DNA from: Bacillota bacterium
GTDB taxonomy: Bacteria; Bacillota; Clostridia; Saccharofermentanales; Saccharofermentanaceae
Direction of reading: 5' to 3'
Assembly: GCA_023397475.1 (NCBI GenBank)
Contig: JAEWUD010000047.1
Location: 3,543-67,542, forward strand
DNA: 64,000 nt
Positions 1 to 50,425 of the stretch are shown here, piece after piece. Made by a program: the position numbers and the translations under genes. Below the pieces are notes generated by a model. The model did no database searches. It was not told the DNA's origin and saw nothing but the letters and a program-made list of their open reading frames with translations. Positions within the stretch are counted from its first letter, which is position 1, and each line of letters opens with the position of its first letter.

Positions 1-129
1 ACGATTGATTCCAAAAATGCAGAGGAATTTAATCAAACGCTTCTCCATTATTACGATACCGATGACAATGGACCATTGCTCAGTTGTCTTACAAAGTGCA
101 TTAAGAGTCTGGAGCGCAACGCTACATAA
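1..129 (+). CDS. 3' end of a CDS truncated by the window edge; hypothetical protein
   Basis: Frame 1 is open from base 1 to TAA at 127-129 (...NAEEFNQTLLHYYDTDDNGPLLSCLTKCIKSLERNAT*). No family recognised. Confidence 0.3.
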   Translation, partial: TIDSKNAEEFNQTLLHYYDTDDNGPLLSCLTKCIKSLERNAT

Positions 130-211
130 AAAATGTTGGGAAATATCACTATGAGTTCTGTAATATAACCATCGAGGTCAATTAGAAATTCATAAACTGG
201 AGTCAGTCAGA

Positions 212-441
212 ATGAAAAAGAACATCATCAGGGTAATTCTTCTTCTTGCCGCGATTCCGCTTGTTTAGGCGGGATTTTTCTCGTAATATTTGCTAACGAA
301 CTGCGAAGCCTGGCTTTTTTTCGAGAGGTGGACGCGTATGGCATGTACCAGATGACCTATTAAGGGGACTATGGATTTGACGAGTTTCTCAAGGTCGGCG
401 CAGGGTCGGACGAGGAGATCGAGGCGTTTGTAACAAATCGA
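212..441 (+). pseudogene. Disrupted 5' part (membrane anchor plus propeptide) of the downstream Ntn-hydrolase gene
   Basis: ATG at 212 gives MKKNIIRVILLLAAIPLV and stops at TAG 266-268. The hydrophobic segment continues in frame 1 (LGGIFLVIFANELRSLAFFREVDAYGMYQMTY) and then hits an in-frame TAA at 361-363. GDYGFDEFLKVGAGSDEEIEAFV follows and runs into the 442 ORF. Confidence 0.55.
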
Positions 442-1101
442 TTGTTGAAAGGGATGCCGATTGATTTGGCGGTGACGTCGGGAGGATGCTCCGCGTTTGT
501 GGTGCCGGGAGAGAACGGCGAGATTCTTTTCGGGAGAAATTTCGACTTCGGATATTCGCCGTCGATGCAGGTGTTCACGGATCCGGACAACGGATACGCT
601 TCGGTCTCGACGGTGAACCTCTCGTTTCTGCGTTACGACGCGGAGAACTTGCCGGAGGGGATGACGGTCGACGAAGCCGTCGAGTTGCTCGAGAAGTATA
701 ATGTGTACTTTTCGGGCGGATTCTACTGCCATTATCTGATCGGGGATTCCAGCGGCCGATCGGTCATCGTCGAATATTATGACGGCGAAATGCAGGTGAT
801 TGAAGCCGACACGACGTACCAGGCCGTGACGAACTTCATCGCGTACAATGGTCTGAACAATGGGCTGGGCGGCGATGAGTTCGAGCGATATGACAGAGTT
901 CTGCAGGTCAACATGGAGAATAACGGCGTGCTGAACGAGTCGCAGGCGGTGCAATTACTGGCGGATGTCGGCATCCGAAATGAGAAAGAAGACTATCTGC
1001 AGTGGTCCGTCGTCTATAACCTGACAAGCGGCGACAATATCCTTTTCGCCCATCGAAACACGGAGAATCTTCTGCACTCGAGGTTGGAGATGACTTCCTG
1101 A
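442..1101 (+). CDS. Linear amide C-N hydrolase / C45-type (acyl-CoA:6-APA acyltransferase-like) Ntn-hydrolase; the longest intact ORF starts at TTG, and the gene is probably degraded upstream
   Basis: 219-aa ORF with the nucleophile context TSGGCSAFVV...FGRNFDF typical of Ntn hydrolases. The first possible start after the upstream stop is TTG 442. Confidence 0.6.
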   Translation: MLKGMPIDLAVTSGGCSAFVVPGENGEILFGRNFDFGYSPSMQVFTDPDNGYASVSTVNLSFLRYDAENLPEGMTVDEAVELLEKYNVYFSGGFYCHYLIGDSSGRSVIVEYYDGEMQVIEADTTYQAVTNFIAYNGLNNGLGGDEFERYDRVLQVNMENNGVLNESQAVQLLADVGIRNEKEDYLQWSVVYNLTSGDNILFAHRNTENLLHSRLEMTS

Positions 1102-1127
1102 TAGGAGGGGCTTGGATGCTCGTTTCC

Positions 1128-1282
1128 TTCAAAAAACGCTTGACGATTTCTCGTGCCTAGCGTTCTTCTGACATTCATTCGTCATTCAGTAGTATTCTCT
1201 CTGCTTAGCACCAGTAAATCTGTGCGACCTCGGTCACAACGTCACCTTCGACCGTAATCCGGAAAACGAGCCATCTATTTCA
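1128..1282 (-). pseudogene. Relic of the 3' end plus terminator of a paralogue of the lipoprotein gene at 2459-3199
   Basis: 1205-1279 (minus) reads NRWLVFRITVEGDVVTEVAQIYWC*. The intact gene ends ...YWVTVEDDVVTEVKQVYWC*. By eye, roughly 80 percent nt identity over about 66 nt. The flanking hairpin AACGCT...AGCGTT mirrors AACGCC...GGCGTT at 2401-2427. An upstream stop at 1280-1282 truncates the relic. Confidence 0.5.
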
Positions 1283-1380
1283 GCCACATCAGTGTATGCA
1301 CCAAATCTTGCTCGCACAACTAAATCTGCCTATCGACAATGGAGAGCAACAGATGCGTATCGTCCTGCCGGAGGGACGAC

Positions 1381-1680
1381 GTACCGACGAAAACGTCGTC
1401 AGCGACCCGTTTCGTCGGTGCATCAGCGAGTTTCAACACGCGCCGGAGAGGCGGCGCACCGACGAAATCGACATCAGCGGCCCGTTTCGTCGGTGCATCA
1501 ACGAGTTTCAACACGCGCCGGAGGGGAGATGCACCGACGAAAACGTCATCAGCGACCCGTTTCGTCGGTGCATCAGCGAATTTCAACACGCGTCGGGAAG
1601 CTGACGAACCTACTCAACCGCGCTCAACGGACGTTTTAGTAGGTTCGTGCATGAAAAGCCCCGCGTAAAGGGTCGGCGAA
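1381..1680. repeat. Tandem 75-bp hairpin repeat array A (4 units)
   Basis: Units start at 1381, 1456, 1531 and 1606. Each is GCACCGACGAAA + 16-nt loop + GTTTCGTCGGTGC + 34-nt spacer. The fourth unit carries a CCTACTCAA/TTTAGTAGG hairpin instead. Confidence 0.9.
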
Positions 1681-1720
1681 ACCTCATTGGCTAGCGACAA
1701 ATATCGAATGGAGGTTAAAC

Positions 1721-2224
1721 ATGAAGGTCAATGAGTCGGCTACAACCTACTACGATAGTTATGAGACTTTGTACGAGAACGAAGTTGAGGCCTTCTTGAC
1801 GGCGGCAGAATCGGGGGACGAAGAGACACTAATTAAGTTTTTCACGGCATCGCGAAGAGAGGATCCGGAACTTCGCCGGCAAATCTCGGAGCTTATTGCG
1901 GAGTTCCCGGGGCCGGTTGATTCAAGAGAGGAAGCGTTTTTCCCGTCGAAGTCCAGTAATTGGGACGAAGGTTTCGAAAACATGAAATGTGACAGTACCT
2001 TCTATTTTGTTTCGCGCGGTGTGCATTATTATGTAGACCTAACTTGTACGATTGTAAGAGATCGGAATTACGAGGAGGCCGGCATCACGTACGTTGCACT
2101 GTGGTCAGCGGAGGCATTCAGCGAGAAAGATCGCGATCATCCGGAACACGACGGGGTTTATGCGTTCCTTGAGACTGAGGAAGCGAATCAAAGAACATAT
2201 TGTACGTATCCGTCCGGGACGTGA
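1721..2224 (+). CDS. Hypothetical protein (possibly DUF5104-like)
   Basis: 167-aa ORF with RBS GGAGG 7 nt upstream of the ATG. There is no signal peptide. The family assignment is only a weak recollection. Confidence 0.55.
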   Translation: MKVNESATTYYDSYETLYENEVEAFLTAAESGDEETLIKFFTASRREDPELRRQISELIAEFPGPVDSREEAFFPSKSSNWDEGFENMKCDSTFYFVSRGVHYYVDLTCTIVRDRNYEEAGITYVALWSAEAFSEKDRDHPEHDGVYAFLETEEANQRTYCTYPSGT

Positions 2225-2394
2225 GAATGTTGAGTAAGCGGGATTTCGCCTCGAATCGGGGCGCTGAGACTAACAACGGCTTTATACATAAATTCTCATT
2301 CTTTATACTACAAGGTGAATCAGAGTTGGAATTTAGAGATTATATAAAGACTGACTATCTGCAAGAGAGATCTTCCGAGACTAATTTATTTCAA

Positions 2395-2430
2395 ATAAAA
2401 AACGCCAAACGTTTTGCGCTCGGCGTTCTT
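2395..2430. terminator. Bidirectional intrinsic terminator between convergent genes
   Basis: Hairpin AACGCC(2401-2406)...GGCGTT(2422-2427). An A-run lies on the plus-strand side (a T-run for the minus-strand lipoprotein gene) and CTTTTCG lies on the other side. Confidence 0.55.
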
Positions 2431-2458
2431 TTCGTGCATTATAGGTGATCATTCTCAC

Positions 2459-3199
2459 TCAGCACCAGTAAACCTGTTTGACCTCGGTCACGACGTCATC
2501 CTCGACGGTTACCCAGTAGAAGAGGCCTTTCATGACGTAGGAGATGCCGTCCGGATCGACCTTTTCGAGCTCATAGAGCGCGACAAAGTCCTCGTAGGAG
2601 ATTGATTCGGAATCCGGCCAAGTTGCTGTCTGGGAACCGTCGGCGTAATGGATGGCCTCGAGTGGGGTTACAACCAGATCGACGGTGCGCAGTTGCGGGT
2701 TGATATTCTTCATGAAGAACTCGCCGTCCATGTAGTTGTTGACCTCTTCTTCGGCCTCGGCCGGCGTATAGCCTTCGTTGTTGACGAGCCAGTCGATCGC
2801 GTCCTGGCCGGTCAGCATGTCGAAATAATCGAACTTCGCCAGGCCTGTCTCGGGATCAAATGACTTCATTATCGCGTAGCTCGAATACATCGTCGCCGTA
2901 TTCACGACGGGAGGGCGGGTGGTCTCGGAAGGTTCGGTGGGGGTCGGGGCGGCTGTGGTCGCCGCGACTGTTGTCTCGACGGCAATAGTTGCGTCTGCAG
3001 TGGTGGACTCTGCCGTTGTCGGTTCCTCCGTAGTATCCGTGGTCTCTTCCTCGGCGGCCGTTTCTGGCGCTGAGGTCGTGGATTCGTTAGCTACATAATA
3101 GAACTGACAACCAGTCGCGGCGAAAAAAAGTGCAGTACACAGGGAAATTGTTAGGATGATCTTCCGAATGGTCCGGTGATGAAGTACGTTCTTGCTCAT
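2459..3199 (-). CDS. Lipoprotein with a Thr/Ala/Glu-rich linker; hypothetical
   Basis: Start MSKNV at 3199 behind RBS GAGGTGAG. Lipobox-like FFAATGC. Low-complexity TTSAPETAAEEETTDTTEEPTT linker. Confidence 0.7.
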   Translation of the reverse strand: MSKNVLHHRTIRKIILTISLCTALFFAATGCQFYYVANESTTSAPETAAEEETTDTTEEPTTAESTTADATIAVETTVAATTAAPTPTEPSETTRPPVVNTATMYSSYAIMKSFDPETGLAKFDYFDMLTGQDAIDWLVNNEGYTPAEAEEEVNNYMDGEFFMKNINPQLRTVDLVVTPLEAIHYADGSQTATWPDSESISYEDFVALYELEKVDPDGISYVMKGLFYWVTVEDDVVTEVKQVYWC

Positions 3200-3454
3200 C
3201 GGCTCACCTCTTCTCAAATTGATGGCACTCATATTATATCATGATTGCTTGAGGGTGGATGAATATCCTGAGATCTTCGAGTTGGAGGCGACATGATTGA
3301 TACGGGTAGAGGTCAAAAATTTGACAGCAAGTTGAATAAAAAAAAAGTCCTTATTATGGGGGAGGTCGCGCCGCGACTCCGATAAAATTGGAGATTCTTT
3401 TCGCAAACTCCCTGAAGCAGTATATATTCATGAGGTCAGTTGGTTATTCGTTGT

Positions 3455-3550
3455 AATCAATGACAAGCAAACGCCTCGAGGTCTACCCAGAACGAGATTG
3501 TCCGGAATTATAGGTACGCGCCGAACCGGCGCGATTTTTTCGACATCAAT
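3455..3550. repeat. Solo, degenerate copy of the array-B repeat unit upstream of gap
   Basis: Contains ATCAATGACAA (3464-) and TAGGTACGCGCCGAACCGGCGCGATTTTTTCGACATCAATAC. Compare the B unit GTAGGTACGCCGGTCGCCCGGCGCGGGTTTCTTATCAATGAC. Confidence 0.5.
3517..3541 (+). terminator. Orphan intrinsic terminator inside the solo repeat unit
   Basis: Perfect 7-bp GC stem CGCGCCG-aac-CGGCGCG followed by ATTTTTT. No plus-strand CDS lies upstream. Confidence 0.5.
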
Positions 3551-3719
3551 ACAGTTCCGCTAGAGTGTTCGCGCGCCATACTCTATGAGGAAATTTCCAT
3601 ACCACCCCACTCCGACGCATATGAAGGCAGGGGATTCGGAACTTGCAAACATTGTGTAAAATGAACAAGGAAAGGGCTCGTTTTCGTGTCAATTTTTTGT
3701 GTCGTTTGAGAATCAAAGG

Positions 3720-3748
3720 TTGTATTAGACGGGTATTTGCGGTAAAAT
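3720..3748 (+). promoter_or_regulatory. Candidate sigma-A promoter of gap
   Basis: TTGTAT - 17 nt - TAAAAT, about 70 nt upstream of the gap ATG. Confidence 0.35.
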
Positions 3749-3783
3749 CTTTGTGGTGCAAAGTGCACACGTAGTAAATCTAA

Positions 3784-4830
<1,047 letters not shown>

Positions 4831-4854
4831 TTTTCCCTCCCGATAACGTATGAG

Positions 4855-4897
4855 ACCCGCTCCGTCGCGCCGCAAGGCTTGACGGGGCGGGTTTTTC
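4855..4897 (+). terminator. Intrinsic terminator of gap
   Basis: ACCCGCTCCGTC ... GACGGGGCGGGT stem followed by TTTTT. Confidence 0.75.
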
Positions 4898-5105
4898 GTT
4901 GTGCGTTCCGACGGGAGGAAGGCCTGAGGGGCGGGTTTTTTATGAGATCAATCCGCGCGAAAAGCATGGCGAGGCGGGTTATCATTGCGCTCCGTCCGAT
5001 TGCAATGCCTGACTGGGCAGGTTTTCTTATGAGATCAATCCGTGCGAGGATGGAGGTTGTCGGGGTTTGACGATGCGCCGTTGGCCGTACAGTTGGAGGT
5101 CGCCG
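4884..5105. repeat. Degenerate 43-44-bp tandem repeat (about 5 units) related to the 3' half of the array-B unit
   Basis: GGGCGGGTTTTT-type motif recurs at 4891, 4935, 4978, 5021 and 5065. Two units share GGTTTT(T/C)TTATGAGATCAATCCG. This resembles CGGGTTTCTTATCAATGAC of array B. Confidence 0.6.
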
Positions 5106-5289
5106 ATTCTGACATAGCACTATCCGTCGTGCCGTTAGACGTCGTTTGGTTGTTGAACTCTGTTTGTTGTGCGGGCAGGTGACGCCATATTTTGTCTTCA
5201 GCGATAAGTGTTTTATGAGATCCTCTCGAGCCGCCGTCTGAGAGCCATCCATTTGATAATGGTCGCAAGCCAACCGGGTTCACAGGGCC

Positions 5290-5737
5290 AACCTACCCCG
5301 GTACGGGTTTCTTATCAATGACAAACCTACTCAAATGGCCAATTCGTGCATTTGAGTAGGTACACCGGTCGCCCGGCGCACGTTTCTTATCAATGACAAA
5401 CCTACTCAATTGGCTGTTTTGCGCGTTTGAGTAGGTACGCCGACCGCCCGGCGCGGGTTTCTTATCAATGACAAACTTACTCAAATGGCCAATTCGTGCA
5501 TTTGGGTAGGTACGCCGGTCGCCCGGCGCGGGTTTCTTGTCAATGACAAACCTACTCAGATGGCCAATTCGTGGGATTGAGTAGGTACGCCGGTCGCCCG
5601 GCGCGGGTTTCTTATCAATGACAAACCTACTAAATAAGCATCGGAGCGTGTTTTAGTAGGTCAGCCTGCCTTGTGGCGTGCGTTTCTTATCATTGACAAA
5701 CCTACTAAATCGGCCTCTTAGCGTGTTTTAGTAGGTT
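5290..5737. repeat. Tandem 75-bp hairpin repeat array B (6 units)
   Basis: TTTCTTATCA motif at 5308, 5383, 5458, 5533, 5608 and 5683 (exact 75-bp period). Each unit is ATCAATGACAAA + CCTACTCAAA-N15-TTTGAGTAGG + CGCCGG-tcgc-CCGGCG + GGGTTTCTT. Confidence 0.92.
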
Positions 5738-6014
5738 GAACTACTAATCACTCATGAGTGACCTCTGTTTCCCAACAAAAAAGACGATACGCAGGTGTTT
5801 CTCTCCATTATCAAAAGGTAGATCTCTCAGCGCGAGCAAGTGGCTATCAAATTCCGCGATGATGGCTCTATCTACGCGCATATGGTTCTACCCTGACGCA
5901 TTTCGCACCGTACTTGTCCTTTCGAAATGAGAGTTTTCGCGGTATAATAAATATGCCCACGTTTGCGTATATGTTGTACGAAGCGCGGGTAATGATTCAA
6001 AGGAGGACTTACTT

Positions 6015-6506
6015 ATGGCACTTTTTGATCCGAAGGCCAGGACGATTTCACTGCTGCAGCGGGCGATCGAGGAGAAGAACGCGAGCATCAACCGTTATTT
6101 TGACGAAATCGGGCGCCTCTATTACGGTCAATACCGCGATGTCTCGGTCGATGTATCCAAAGACATCAACGCAAGATGTGACGCGATTTCTACATTGTTT
6201 ATTGATATCGAGGCGAACAAGCTGAAGATTCTTTTTGAGAAGGGGCTGAAGCTATGCTCCAGCTGTAAGAGGGAGAATCCTCTTGAGCATGCGTTCTGTT
6301 CCGCATGTGGGACGAAGTTCCCGGAAGGGTCGGATAAGCAGGTTGAGGTTCCGACCTCGTTGCCTCCGGTGCCGCCGACTCTTGTTCCCAAGGGCACTCA
6401 GGCTGCGACGGATATTGCCGCGCATGAAGTTCAGGCGGTTCCGGTTCAATCCGAACCGATTCCCGTGAACGGCGAAGCGCCGGCCAATCCACCGCAGAAT
6501 CTCTGA
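6015..6506 (+). CDS. Zinc-ribbon domain-containing protein
   Basis: CSSC...CSAC zinc-ribbon motif and a Pro-rich tail. RBS AAGGAGG. Confidence 0.7.
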   Translation: MALFDPKARTISLLQRAIEEKNASINRYFDEIGRLYYGQYRDVSVDVSKDINARCDAISTLFIDIEANKLKILFEKGLKLCSSCKRENPLEHAFCSACGTKFPEGSDKQVEVPTSLPPVPPTLVPKGTQAATDIAAHEVQAVPVQSEPIPVNGEAPANPPQNL

Positions 6507-6658
6507 CCGAGGAATTGCCCGACGCAACACTTTAATTGTACCATGAATCCGTTTTTTGCGCAGTGATGAACGTTACGGGTTTTTTTCCTCCGTTACGTAT
6601 AATGGAGGTAAGAATCCTGTAAAGGATTCGCGAAAAGAAGCCGGAAGGAAGTGATTCT

Positions 6659-7198
6659 ATGAAGATCACGACACAGGGTATCGGAATTCACGTCGGACAG
6701 AGATTGGAGGAGAAGATCAGCGATAAGCTCTCGAAATTCAATAAGTACTTCGGAGAAGAGGCTGCTTTTTCCGTCAAGATCCGACCGGAACGCGATGTGA
6801 AGAAGGTTGAGATCACGTTAAGACTTCAGAACCATATCTATCGGGCAGAAGCGAAGGACGAAGAGATTCTCACAGCGGTTGACCGCACGGTGGACAAGCT
6901 CGAGTCGCAGATTCGCCGACAGAAGACAAGAATTCAGAAACAGATTCACGACTATTCCTACATGAAGGAGTACCTCGACGACATCGTACCGGATGCGGAA
7001 GATGAAGAGTACGAGGAGAAGACGATCATCAAGCGCAAGACTTTCGCTCTGGTTCCGATGACATCGGACGACGCGGTTTTGCAGATGGAAATGCTCGGAC
7101 ACAGCTTTCTGGTATATCTGGACGCTGAGACCGGAAATGTCTGTGTTGTGTATAAACGCAAGGACGGCAACTATGGTCTGATCGAACCTACCTATTGA
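6659..7198 (+). CDS. hpf: Ribosome hibernation-promoting factor, long form
   Basis: 179 aa. N-terminal sigma-54-modulation/S30EA fold and the C-terminal dimerisation domain ...MEMLGHSFLVYLDAETGNVCVVYKRKDGNYGLIEP. Confidence 0.92.
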   Translation: MKITTQGIGIHVGQRLEEKISDKLSKFNKYFGEEAAFSVKIRPERDVKKVEITLRLQNHIYRAEAKDEEILTAVDRTVDKLESQIRRQKTRIQKQIHDYSYMKEYLDDIVPDAEDEEYEEKTIIKRKTFALVPMTSDDAVLQMEMLGHSFLVYLDAETGNVCVVYKRKDGNYGLIEPTY

Positions 7199-38404: not shown

Positions 38405-38448
38405 GGGCTGTCTCATGACGAGAGTTGAGAGACAGCCCTTCTTTATAT
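38405..38448 (+). terminator. Intrinsic terminator of the ABC operon
   Basis: GGGCTGTCTC-14 nt-GAGACAGCCC followed by TTCTTTATATT. Confidence 0.7.
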
Positions 38449-38541
38449 TAAAAGGGTTAAGAGGCGAGCATATCTCAGAGCGCTGACGGCAGTACGAGAA
38501 TACAATACTCGGGGAGGCGGGCGCCGCGGGCGTTATGATTT

Positions 38542-39196
38542 GTGGACGAAACCGGTCATTCGAGGCACTTTCGTCCACAAGGGGAGCCCCGCTGGGTGCC
38601 ACTGGCGTTGAGATTTGTGGGCGTACGAAAAAACGGTTTGGAGCATGTTTCGTATATGCATCAATGACAAATAACGGCTCCAGAAAGGCCGCCGCACATA
38701 CGAAATCCTGTGAAGTAGGCAGTTTCGTATGTGCATCAATGACAAAATAACCGTCGCCGGGTCACCGGCGCACATACGAAAAGCTGTGAAGGAGGCAGTT
38801 TCGTATCTGCGTCAATGATAAATTACCGCTCTGGGATTGCTGGCGCACATACGAAATCCCGGGTTGAAGCATGTTTCGTATGTGCATCATTGACAAATAA
38901 CGCCTCTGGGAAACCTAGCGCACATACGAAAACCTGTGAAGGAGGCAGTTTCGTATGTGCATCAATGACAAATATCGGCTCCAGCAAGGCCGCCGCACAT
39001 ACGAAATCCTGTGAAGGAGGCAGTTTCGTATGTGCATCAATGATAAATAACCGCTCTGGGATTGCTGGCGCACATACGAAAACCCGTTAAGATGTCTGTT
39101 TCGTATGTGCATCAATGATAAATAACCGCTCCAGCAAGGACGCCGGACATACGAAAACCCGTGAAAGACCCTGTTTCGTATGTGCCTCATTAATAT
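38542..39196. repeat. Tandem 75-bp hairpin repeat array C (about 9 units)
   Basis: GTTTCGTATGTGC arm at 38647, 38722, 38797, 38873, 38947, 39023, 39098 and 39173. Each unit is GCACATACGAAA + 16-nt loop + GTTTCGTATGTGC + ATCAATGACAAA... 34-nt spacer. The first unit uses GTGGACGAAA/TTTCGTCCAC. Confidence 0.92.
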
Positions 39197-39375
39197 ATAT
39201 TTCTACTTGCCCAGACTAGCCCAACTACGAATCACTACAGCCTTCATTATCTCGAAGTCATAACTCAGAATGCGAGCATATGATGAGCTTCCCCTACATA
39301 GGATCGAAGATTCTGGATCTACGGAAGTGAGAAATATTCGAGTCCTGCAACATCGTCATTTGAAAATGTAACAAG

Positions 39376-39412
39376 GCAGTCTCTCAACATGCGTTTTGAG
39401 ACTGCTTATTTA
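39376..39412 (+). terminator. Orphan intrinsic terminator-like hairpin
   Basis: GCAGTCTC-14 nt-GAGACTGC followed by TTATTTA. No CDS lies upstream. Confidence 0.4.
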
Positions 39413-39547: not shown

Positions 39548-39672
39548 TCTGCAAGCAGTGCTCCGCACAAGCGGTGCTCCGCTGGGCTCTGTTACACTCG
39601 CACAAGCAGTGCTCTGCCGGCCTCCGTTACATTCGCACTAGCGGTGCTTCGCCGGGCTCTGTTACATCCGCA
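39548..39672. repeat. 35-bp tandem repeat (3 full units plus partial units)
   Basis: GCACAAGCGGTGCTCCGCTGGGCTCTGTTACACTC-type units start at 39565, 39600 and 39635. Confidence 0.8.
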
Positions 39673-46981: not shown

Positions 46982-47070
46982 TGGCGGAGACGGTGGGATT
47001 CGAACCCACGTGCCCTTGCGGACAACTCGATTTCGAGTCGAGCTCGTTATGACCACTTCGATACGTCTCC
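46982..47070 (-). tRNA. tRNA-Ser (anticodon CGA), class II with a long variable arm and encoded CCA
   Basis: Hand-folded cloverleaf. Acceptor GGAGACG/CGTCTCC, anticodon stem CTCGA/TCGAG with loop CTCGAAA, variable arm GTCC-gcaa-GGGC, and T-arm GTGGG-TTCGAAT-CCCAC. Confidence 0.95.
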
Positions 47071-50266: not shown

Positions 50267-50278
50267 GCAAAGTAGACA

Positions 50279-50425
50279 AACACGGGGAGCTGGAACCAGA
50301 TCCGGCTGAGAGGATACGATATTCAGGCGTATCGACCCGAATACCTGAACCGGATAATGCCGGCGGAGGGATCAATTGCTGAAGTGTAACACTTCTCCTT
50401 GTTCACCTGCCGGAATCAAGGAGGA
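50279..50425 (+). promoter_or_regulatory. TPP (THI-box) riboswitch with an SD-sequestering expression platform
   Basis: GGGGAGC...GGCTGAGAGG...ACCC...ACCTGAACCGGATAATGCCGGCGGAGGGA matches the THI-box core. CTCCTTG (50394-50400) can pair with CAAGGAG (50417-50423), the thiT RBS. Confidence 0.85.

Follow-up and report, generated by a model that had tools for sequence, protein, structure and literature searches.

Array B is a block of tandem 75-bp repeats at positions 5290–5739 of the DNA stretch analysed here, 64,000 bp of a Bacillota genome from the Saccharofermentanaceae (assembly GCA_023397475.1, contig JAEWUD010000047.1; below, the window), where it lies between gap and a zinc-ribbon gene. 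We think it probable, with some reservation, that array B belongs to a large, lineage-specific family of intergenic hairpin-repeat elements, non-coding and modular in build, that are selfish or neutral and BOX- or BIME-like in kind. The elements are found in many unrelated spacers between genes, with no fixed orientation, and their internal units multiply and disappear locally and fast. Apparently, the family has not been described so far, and its host is an uncultured Clostridia lineage of the gut or digester type. The initial annotation, made from the window sequence, had proposed a dispersed REP-like repeat recognised by RAYT transposases; the dispersal is borne out by further copies in the window and by dozens of related loci elsewhere, whereas the specific link to RAYT is not.

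Distribution of the family

A pattern search over one genome per species yielded true matches only in three loci of metagenome-assembled genomes (MAGs) labelled 'uncultured Mageeibacillus sp.' (Oscillospiraceae), the remaining matches being due to chance in AT-rich genomes. Metagenome contigs were scanned with a stricter three-unit pattern, which retrieved at least 120 loci, dozens of them true members of the family (loci are denoted below by L and a number). A hidden Markov model (HMM) of the unit, built from 183 units, recognises at least 69 arrays in at least 59 loci from the 'Mageeibacillus'-labelled MAGs and the metagenomes, with one to eight units per array, usually five to seven. Within every array the units are direct repeats, as the HMM matches one strand only. 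The 35-nt hairpin described below (hairpin 1) is present in every unit of these arrays, all of them outside long open reading frames (ORFs). The density is considerable: three arrays (A, B and C) in the 64-kb window and two on several contigs of 5–14 kb. The profile search found no solitary units elsewhere in the window.

Outside these sources, the pattern scan of viral contigs produced only chance matches, and the leader (see below) together with the units had no blastn match in either the plasmid or the phage collection; hence a plasmid or phage origin was rejected. No Rfam family matched the arrays or leaders, either in the window at the gathering score or in positions 1–7000 and six family loci at E≤1. 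Full-text literature searches gave nothing relevant on the motif sequences or on REP/RAYT systems in Clostridia.

Several other repeats were seen in the course of the scans. A related subfamily has a period of 74 bp and two TCAWTGA anchors per unit, with a half-period of about 37 bp (CCACCAAAAT ... TTTATACTTCC); it occupies L079, L100, L109, L112, L135, L165, L170, L171 and L174. Hybrids, in which the hairpin arms of a unit are drawn from different stem classes, occur in L122, L089 and L142 (9712–9868). An unrelated repeat family with mutually similar spurious ORFs (...FAHT...LWAK...) is present in L109 (238–674), L126 (6150–6523), L142 (9985–10334), L165 (11119–11478) and L168 (14052–14437). 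Finally, L098 (69–7589) and L099 (192–7712) owe their chance matches to long CRISPR-like arrays, in which a 37-nt repeat (GTCTCAATCCTTATTGTAATGGATGTACTTCAATGAT) recurs with a period of about 73, up to 38 times in the longest run; these arrays have nothing to do with the family.

Structure of the unit

The unit consists of three parts: a perfect hairpin of 9–12 bp with a variable loop of 15–17 nt (hairpin 1), the near-palindrome TCAWTGAYAAGAAAC, below called the anchor, and a variable GC-rich segment that often forms a small hairpin. Placed in register, the three window arrays follow this single design, that is, an inverted repeat of 9–12 bp, a loop of 15–17 nt, a conserved motif and a GC-rich stretch. 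The conserved motif contains TCAATGA in arrays B and C and TCAGCGA in array A, and the stems are CCTACTCAAA or CCTACTAAA in array B, GCACCGACGAAA in array A and GCACATACGAAA in array C. It was the comparison with arrays in other genomes that revealed the anchor motif, TTGTCAWTGACAA, to be nearly palindromic.

Positions T1, C2, A3, G6 and A7 of the anchor are invariant in the alignment of 144 distinct units. The column entropy is about 0.3 bit in the anchor and the hairpin arms, versus about 1.2 bit in the hairpin loop and the GC stretch. A-type units, with the design otherwise kept, carry TCAGCGAGTTTCAAC in place of the anchor. These data bear on the possibility that the arrays are protein-binding DNA, the motif TTGTCAWTGACAA recurring every 75 bp, or about seven helical turns, as a phased site for a dimeric nucleoid-associated or partition-like protein. 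In its favour, the anchor (TTTGTCATTGATAAGAAAC) is the most invariant part of the unit (0.28 bit) and is palindromic, and units of three stem classes all repeat at exactly 75 bp. However, the replacement of the anchor in A-type units does not fit, no candidate protein was found, the dispersed positions have no link to any gene class, and common descent without indels can explain the exact period. We consider this possibility highly improbable.

The arms of hairpin 1 are paired in 96% of the alignment cells, versus 30–40% if the partner is slid by 1–3 columns. Five of the ten pairs have changed on both sides (C-G/A-T, T-A/G-C, A-T/C-G), all the changes being of the transversion type, and G-T intermediates are nearly absent (3 in 1440 cells). 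This would be expected of a DNA palindrome that is copied whole or corrected arm to arm, and not of an RNA helix drifting via wobble pairs. As there are four co-varying versions of the stem, the compensated pairs reflect few historical events and alone are no proof of selection.

The GC stretch is conserved much less strictly. In a fixed register it is paired in only 60% of cells, and its folding energy over the family is −6.8 kcal/mol, against −5.5 kcal/mol for shuffles. The raw excess of G-T over A-C mispairs in the GC stem (149 vs 63) is due mainly to one fixed terminal pair, and the substitutions relative to the array consensus are symmetric (24 C>T and 24 G>A). Hence no strand-specific RNA signature is seen.

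The foot of hairpin 1 was the reason for the RAYT link in the initial annotation, since CTAC/GTAG is the tetranucleotide typical of REP elements. In a REP/RAYT system, hairpin 1 would be recognised and cut as single-stranded DNA by a domesticated Y1 (HUH) transposase with a single gene at another place in the genome, and the arrays would be comparable to BIME clusters. Indeed, hairpin 1 is a 35-nt palindrome with the B-type foot CCTAC...GTAGG, the family is high-copy, intergenic and clustered, and the stems are kept in perfect Watson–Crick pairing, as a DNA hairpin substrate would be. The TTGAT/ATCAA contained in the anchor resembles some IS200/IS605 target sites as well. However, the tetranucleotide foot is confined to the CCTACT-type stems and is missing from the A-type (GCACCGACGAAA) and C-type (GCACATACGAAA) stems of the same unit design; the units are always direct and never form inverted REPIN pairs or alternating BIMEs; and conservation is highest in the anchor rather than in the hairpin foot alone. 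The corresponding enzyme was not seen either. Pfam detected no transposase or Y1/RAYT-like domain among 20 small ORFs of the window, and tblastn with IS608 TnpA and the E. coli RAYT gave nothing below E 0.7 (best 0.74) in 1.24 Mb of the window and the retrieved loci, a weak negative confined to this sequence. Two defining features of such systems, a GTAG/CTAC foot throughout the family and inverted pairing, are lacking, and we rate a REP/RAYT system as unlikely.

Array B

Tandem Repeats Finder places array B at 5297–5715, with the period of 75 bp, 5.6 copies and the score 505–591. In the plus-strand register the units start at 5314, 5389, 5464, 5539, 5614 and 5689, that is, at a spacing of exactly 75 bp, and span 5314–5737. 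Hence the period and the six copies of the initial annotation hold, but not the description of the units as exact: the copies are 81–86% alike, the loops and the segment of the second hairpin (hairpin 2) vary from unit to unit, and the sixth unit is truncated, ending after hairpin 1. A remnant of the GC hairpin remains at the array terminus (5290–5313).

Hairpin 1, CCTACTCAAA-N15-TTTGAGTAGG, is present in all six units. Its folding energy is −11.8 to −16.7 kcal/mol, with z-scores of −3.3 to −5.7 relative to shuffles, and both strands are alike in this respect. The compensated change of the arms reported initially is real: units 5 and 6 have CCTACTAAA/TTTAGTAGG on the two arms. The claim of two hairpins in each unit is only half correct, as hairpin 2 (CGCCGG-tcgc-CCGGCG) is a clean 6-bp GC stem in units 3 and 4 only; unit 2 comes near to it, whereas in unit 1 the stem is mismatched, in unit 5 it is degenerate, and in the truncated unit 6 it is missing.

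On the minus strand, the order within the unit is hairpin 1, TTTGTCAWTGAYAAGAAAC and the GC-rich segment, which is the family order. The family HMM applied to this strand finds five whole 75-bp units with 58–73 bits each, a truncated leader-proximal unit (34 bits) and a 26-nt terminal fragment (17 bits). Therefore array B is inverted relative to arrays A and C, and the common order of hairpin, anchor, A-rich run and GC stretch is read on its minus strand. This orientation, the two other arrays in the window and the leader remnant adjoining array B (Table 1) had been overlooked initially.

Copy-number change

A comparison of strains, proposed in the initial annotation, demonstrated a difference in unit number at the array B locus, six versus seven. 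In L060, identical to the window but for one single-nucleotide polymorphism, array B has six units, while in L061 it has seven due to a duplication of unit 4. In L124, a 96% identical relative, there are at least seven units, mostly with the other version of the stem. In L186, where the zinc-ribbon protein is 88% identical to that of the window, seven units are seen, with pairs of identical neighbours and no leader. The other two arrays behave similarly: array A has 3.1 units versus 5.9 in the orthologous L159, and array C has 7.2 units versus 5.6 in L152. The unit identity is 0.85 within arrays and 0.71 between arrays. Of seven contigs with the neighbouring hpf gene, at least two begin at the edge of the array, and thus assemblies break there.

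Leader, trailer and polarity

In the family orientation, arrays share a 5' flank of about 300 nt, which we call the leader. The leader profile, of 304 positions, has 26 matches, and all 26 are situated directly 5' of an array on the same strand. Thirteen of them are full length, whereas the others, arrays A and B included, retain the proximal part only. In unrelated loci the similarity starts about 320–375 nt upstream of the array. For trailers, conservation does not extend beyond subgroups. Unit types are ordered as well: in arrays mixing the two CCTACT stem versions, units with CCTACTAAA are leader-proximal and those with CCTACTCAAA are distal in about 13 loci, with four exceptions. The order in array B, 221111, is in line with this polarity. 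The leader, the distinct first and last units and the trailer show that the element is built of a flanking module, tandem units and a second flanking module. In one case, within the region 866–2449 of L158, a full-length leader plus array is directly beside a tmRNA gene (Rfam tmRNA, 158 bits, 2069–2449). tmRNA genes are classic integration hot spots of mobile elements.

The leader features GGAGAG followed, after six bases, by ATG, TTG or CTG. The ORFs starting there have from 6 to 133 codons and their frame is not kept; a conserved leader peptide was rejected, as the translations are alike only among three close leaders and are frame-shifted in others. A structured leader RNA was rejected too, since the leader alignment has no consensus RNA structure by RNAalifold (about −1.3 kcal/mol). 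A promoter-like site, TTGGCG-16-TACAAT, is situated at the same position in the leaders of L086 and L097.

This suggests another explanation, a functional RNA array: the leader promoter would drive a multi-hairpin RNA of the family strand, serving as a protein sponge or yielding unit RNAs in the manner of a CRISPR leader with its array or of a CsrB-type decoy. The leader is conserved and always on one side of the array, the promoter-like site recurs, compensatory changes preserve hairpin 1, and GAAGGAG is conserved in C-type loops. Further, the family strand has fewer terminator-like sites: L086 and L097 have four, three of them within the arrays on the opposite strand and the fourth, on the family strand, ahead of the L097 leader, and all the sites flagged inside array B are on the plus strand of the window, that is, on the reverse of the family strand. 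On the other hand, the promoter-like hits are no commoner than in shuffles; several arrays have a leader remnant of 78 nt lacking the promoter-like site or are leaderless, as is the L186 orthologue of array B; neither a G-U signature nor a strand asymmetry of substitutions is observed; the loops are variants of each other rather than unrelated spacers; and there is neither an Rfam match nor a recurrent neighbour gene. We give this explanation only a slight chance. The version in which the arrays are transcription units, so that leader promoters yield multi-hairpin RNA from dozens of loci per genome, to be processed or to act as a decoy for an RNA-binding protein, is prompted by the conserved leader on one side, the polarity of the unit types and the strict preservation of the hairpin. 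GAAGGAG of the C-type loops is a CsrA-like or anti-Shine-Dalgarno-like motif, and the whole would be a CRISPR-like leader plus array without cas genes; this version seems very unlikely.

The array B element is bounded by an inverted repeat of about 25 nt (Table 1), and none of 300 shuffles produced an alignment as good. However, in 14 other leader-bearing loci the inverted match is marginal or no better than in shuffles, and terminal inverted repeats as a general trait of the family were rejected, being significant only at elements B and C of the window.

The gap spacer

The gap ORF occupies 3802–4830, and Gp_dh domains are found on the same gene in L060. It is followed by its own strong intrinsic terminator (Table 1), situated 400 nt upstream of array B and independent of it. 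The rest of the spacer up to the array B element, 4898–5236, contains decayed related repeats: TTATGAGATC is found at three places (4940, 5027 and 5213), with the extension AATCCG at the first two, and there are also the anchor-like TTATCATTGCG and pieces of GC hairpins and T-tracts. This region is 88% conserved in the matching spacer of a sister species (L178, the same as L186).

The next gene after array B is the zinc-ribbon ORF, 6015–6506. The TATAAT preceding it is kept in relatives with and without the array (by comparison of the spacers in the window, L186, L188, L190 and L192) and, to judge from this conservation, is probably the −10 box of the gene, although the consensus scan called no full promoter. 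With the gap terminator on one side and the conserved TATAAT on the other, array B lies between a terminator and a promoter. The distance from gap to the zinc-ribbon gene is 1184 bp in the window versus 157 bp in the more distant relative L192, whose zinc-ribbon protein is 70% identical; the latter spacer has no array. Hence the spacer after gap was filled by the array secondarily.

The consensus terminator scan of the plus strand in 4700–6200 flags eight terminator-like sites, with 1.9 expected, and six of them are inside array B, formed by stems of 5–6 bp followed by CGGGUUUCUU. Thus the initial description of hairpin 2 as terminator-like agrees with the consensus but not with the fold: at −11.3 kcal/mol its z-score is −0.8, with 34 of 200 shuffles of the same composition as good, and the tail following it, GGGTTTCTTAT, is a weak, interrupted U-tract. 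Moreover, since array B is inverted, this terminator-like face of the plus strand is the reverse strand of the family orientation.

The initial annotation had also proposed that the array acts as a module for fail-safe termination or mRNA stabilisation of gap. A dedicated fail-safe terminator or 3'-end stabiliser of the gap mRNA would agree with the position downstream of gap, with the GC stem followed by GGGTTTCTT in units 1–5 of the plus strand, and with the excess of terminator-like sites. However, gap already has a strong terminator well upstream of the array, hairpin 2 folds no better than shuffles matched in composition and is followed by a broken U-tract, elements of the family are found in every orientation, between divergent genes too, the array is absent from the same spacer in L192, and the number and type of units vary freely among close strains. 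With all this, the proposal is hardly tenable.

Neighbouring genes and orientation

The flanking genes differ from locus to locus. Clustering of 1441 ORFs from 72 loci yielded no recurrent neighbour gene, the only clusters being array-derived ORFs, ABC ATPases, surface-repeat proteins and other repeat DNA. The genes following the three window arrays encode a DUF5104 protein, the zinc-ribbon protein and a putative aminopeptidase, none of them a recognisable toxin; the last assignment is our reading of the protein sequence. The four classes of array and neighbour orientation are about equally frequent (++ 10, +− 7, −− 7, −+ 6) by crude longest-ORF gene calls. At that, co-directional placement at the 3' ends of transcription units is not kept family-wide, the orientation being random.

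Arrays A and C and other features of the window

The features discussed are collected in Table 1.

Table 1. Features of the window associated with the repeat arrays (positions in the window)
Feature	Positions	Strand	Description
Array A	1328–1646	+	leader remnant 1328–1372, three 75-bp units, terminal CCTACT-type hairpin 1606–1645
Intrinsic terminator of gap	4852–4896	+	long GC-rich stem with TTTTT after it; folding energy −35.5 kcal/mol (z −6.3)
Decayed related repeats	4898–5236		rest of the gap spacer; by motif positions and sequence
Left arm of array B inverted repeat	5237–5262		CTGAGAGCCATCCATTTGATAATGG; pairs with 5805–5831
Array B	5290–5739	−	six direct 75-bp units, the last truncated; by Tandem Repeats Finder, register layout and unit HMM
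Leader remnant of array B	5738–5815	−	proximal 78 nt; nhmmer profile positions 228–304, E 1.2e-13; contains GGAGAGAAACACCTGCGTATCGTC
Right arm of array B inverted repeat	5805–5831		about 25 nt; 14-nt core, 93% complementary
TATAAT	5943–5948	+	before the zinc-ribbon ORF; kept in relatives with and without the array; probable −10 box
Array C element	38407–39405	+	two diverged units, seven units at about 38520–39190, trailer of about 220 nt, inverted repeats at the ends

Array A has the unit stem GCACCGACGAAA/TTTCGTCGGTGC. Tandem Repeats Finder gives the period of 75 at 1367–1596, and the unit HMM matches the plus strand with 17–42 bits per unit. An ORF of 83 codons (1353–1604, MRIVLPEGRRTDENVVSDPFRRCISEFQHAPE...), with GGAGAG and a 6-nt spacer before its ATG, runs through the repeats, and the orthologue of array A in L159 has an ORF of 133 codons. 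By analogy with the ORFs reported for large BOX elements, the through-running ORF is probably a by-product.

In array C, the seven units have the stem GCACATACGAAA/TTTCGTATGTGC, with the period of 75 at 38647–39189 and 42–56 bits per unit on the plus strand. Its trailer is conserved in five other loci (L184, L068, L127, L115 and L162). The inverted repeats at the ends of the element are 47 nt long (38407–38453 and 39359–39405) and 70% complementary; each is a terminator-like hairpin in its own right. In C-type units (window 38690–39170; L066, L068, L069, L072, L152 and L162), the 17-nt loops contain a conserved purine-rich GAAGGAG, Shine-Dalgarno-like with its GGA, and in several C-type units it is situated 9 nt 5' of the ATG of a six-codon mini-ORF (MCINDK, stop) that ends in the anchor. 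This could be a decoy for ribosomes or of the CsrA type, or else chance.

A separate 35-bp tandem repeat, CGCACAAGCGGTGCTCCGCCGGGCTCTGTTACATT, with 3.1 copies at 39564–39672, is located just upstream of the putative aminopeptidase gene, and a comparable repeat of about 40 bp is seen beside the array in L032 (4200–4350). The genomes carrying the arrays seem to have many tandem repeats between genes. Otherwise the window is of the housekeeping kind, with hpf, a gene for a UvrD/PcrA-type helicase, an HD-domain gene, greA, phoU and ABC transporters. It also has two ordinary features, a TPP (thiamine pyrophosphate) riboswitch (50273–50388, plus strand, 55.7 bits) and a tRNA-Ser (CGA) gene (46982–47070, minus strand). 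No mobile-element genes were found among the window ORFs scanned.

Interpretation

Several further candidates were tried and rejected. The 75-nt units are not tRNA-like, as ARAGORN and Rfam find one tRNA only, elsewhere in the window. A CRISPR- or TIGR-like guide array does not agree with the variable loop and GC stretch being homologous between units, or with the housekeeping neighbours, and no associated genes were found. For a type III toxin–antitoxin system of the ToxI kind, the downstream genes are unrelated, differ from locus to locus, and none encodes a nuclease. Coding repeats, or precursors like those of ribosomally synthesised and post-translationally modified peptides, were discarded since neither frames nor lengths are conserved and the indel sizes are not multiples of three; for one array-spanning ORF, a protein search retrieved only 10 similar predicted proteins.

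We return to array B as a copy of a selfish or neutral intergenic family. The element, read on the minus strand, would consist of the leader, represented by its proximal 78 nt, six direct units and the 25-nt inverted repeat as its boundary. Units would be gained and lost by replication slippage or unequal recombination, whereas new loci may be seeded by a trans-acting recombinase or transposase recognising the hairpin, the palindromic anchor or both as DNA. No job specific to gap would be assigned to the array, and any effect at the RNA level would be a by-product, possibly a weak stop to, or protection of, read-through transcripts of gap by the plus-strand GC hairpins followed by UUUCUU.

A number of observations weigh against this reading. 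The anchor and the hairpin arms are strongly conserved in comparison with the loop and GC stretch (about 0.3 vs 1.2 bit), three stem classes share a period of exactly 75 bp, and the conserved leader is one-sided, with the promoter-like TTGGCG-16-TACAAT and the Shine-Dalgarno-like GGAGAG plus NTG. These features could equally mark a selected function as RNA, DNA or a protein-binding site, and it is because they could mark a host function that we call the reading probable and no more. Further, as to the marks of a MITE (miniature inverted-repeat transposable element), no target-site duplications were recognised and terminal inverted repeats are clear only at arrays B and C of the window; no transposase, recombinase or insertion sequence with matching ends was found, so that mobility is deduced from the dispersal alone. 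The gene calls behind the orientation counts were crude enough for a spurious ORF to be picked for array B.

Comparison with known systems

REP/BIME, BOX, NIME and MIRU elements are well studied in a few model pathogens, while in gut and digester Clostridia, known mostly from metagenome bins, such elements are hardly described. In practice, the present family breaks short-read assemblies, creates spurious ORFs, and could pass for CRISPR-like arrays or terminators. Its fast copy-number change provides ready-made loci for strain typing, and the regular design, with the anchor, four compensated hairpins, the exact 75-bp period and the leader, could suit a study of spread and host co-option.

Like the REP, BIME and REPIN elements of Enterobacteria and Pseudomonas, the family consists of short GC-containing palindromes that are high-copy, extragenic and clustered, and the B-type hairpin has the GTAG/CTAC foot. 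Transcribed REPs stabilise the upstream mRNA or attenuate transcription (PMC3049150). However, the units here are strictly direct, two stem classes lack GTAG/CTAC, and no RAYT was found in the sequence examined; the conserved leader and the non-hairpin anchor have no REP counterpart.

The MIRUs of Mycobacterium tuberculosis are tandem units of 40–100 bp, of length divisible by three, present at many intergenic loci with strain-variable copy number. They lie inside operons, oriented like the genes on either side, and their small ORFs overlap the stop and start codons of the neighbours. Our family is similar in the tandem unit size, the length divisible by three, the many intergenic loci and the strain-variable copies; unlike in MIRUs, the orientation is random, the frames are not kept (ORFs of 6 to 133 codons), and a perfect hairpin dominates the unit.

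The NIMEs of Neisseria (mentioned in PMC3049150) are intergenic mosaic elements. Their RS units are separated by dRS3 inverted repeats. The likeness is in mosaic arrays punctuated by a short conserved inverted repeat and dispersed intergenically. NIME units are of heterogeneous length, 50–150 bp, and dRS3 is a phage integration site. The family described here differs by the fixed 75-bp period and by the lack of any integrase or prophage link seen. It is CRISPR-like in the one-sided leader only.

The closest parallel in design is offered by the pneumococcal BOX elements, in which boxA and boxC surround a variable number of tandem boxB; they are strain-variable, fold into stem-loops and do not encode a transposase (PMC3049150). 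In the BOX elements of S. pneumoniae and S. suis, including the boxE and boxF variants, larger arrays vary more and can create spurious ORFs (PMC3049150). The family shares with BOX the construction of leader, units and trailer, the variable unit number, the stem-loops, the many intergenic loci and the ORFs running through arrays. It differs in the 75-bp unit with a perfect hairpin of 9–12 bp, a palindromic anchor and four compensated stems, as opposed to the 45-bp boxB; terminal inverted repeats are not general, no insertion sequence with matching ends is known, and the host belongs to Clostridia rather than Bacilli. Hence the likeness to BOX is an analogy of design and not membership, and no sequence relationship is to be expected.

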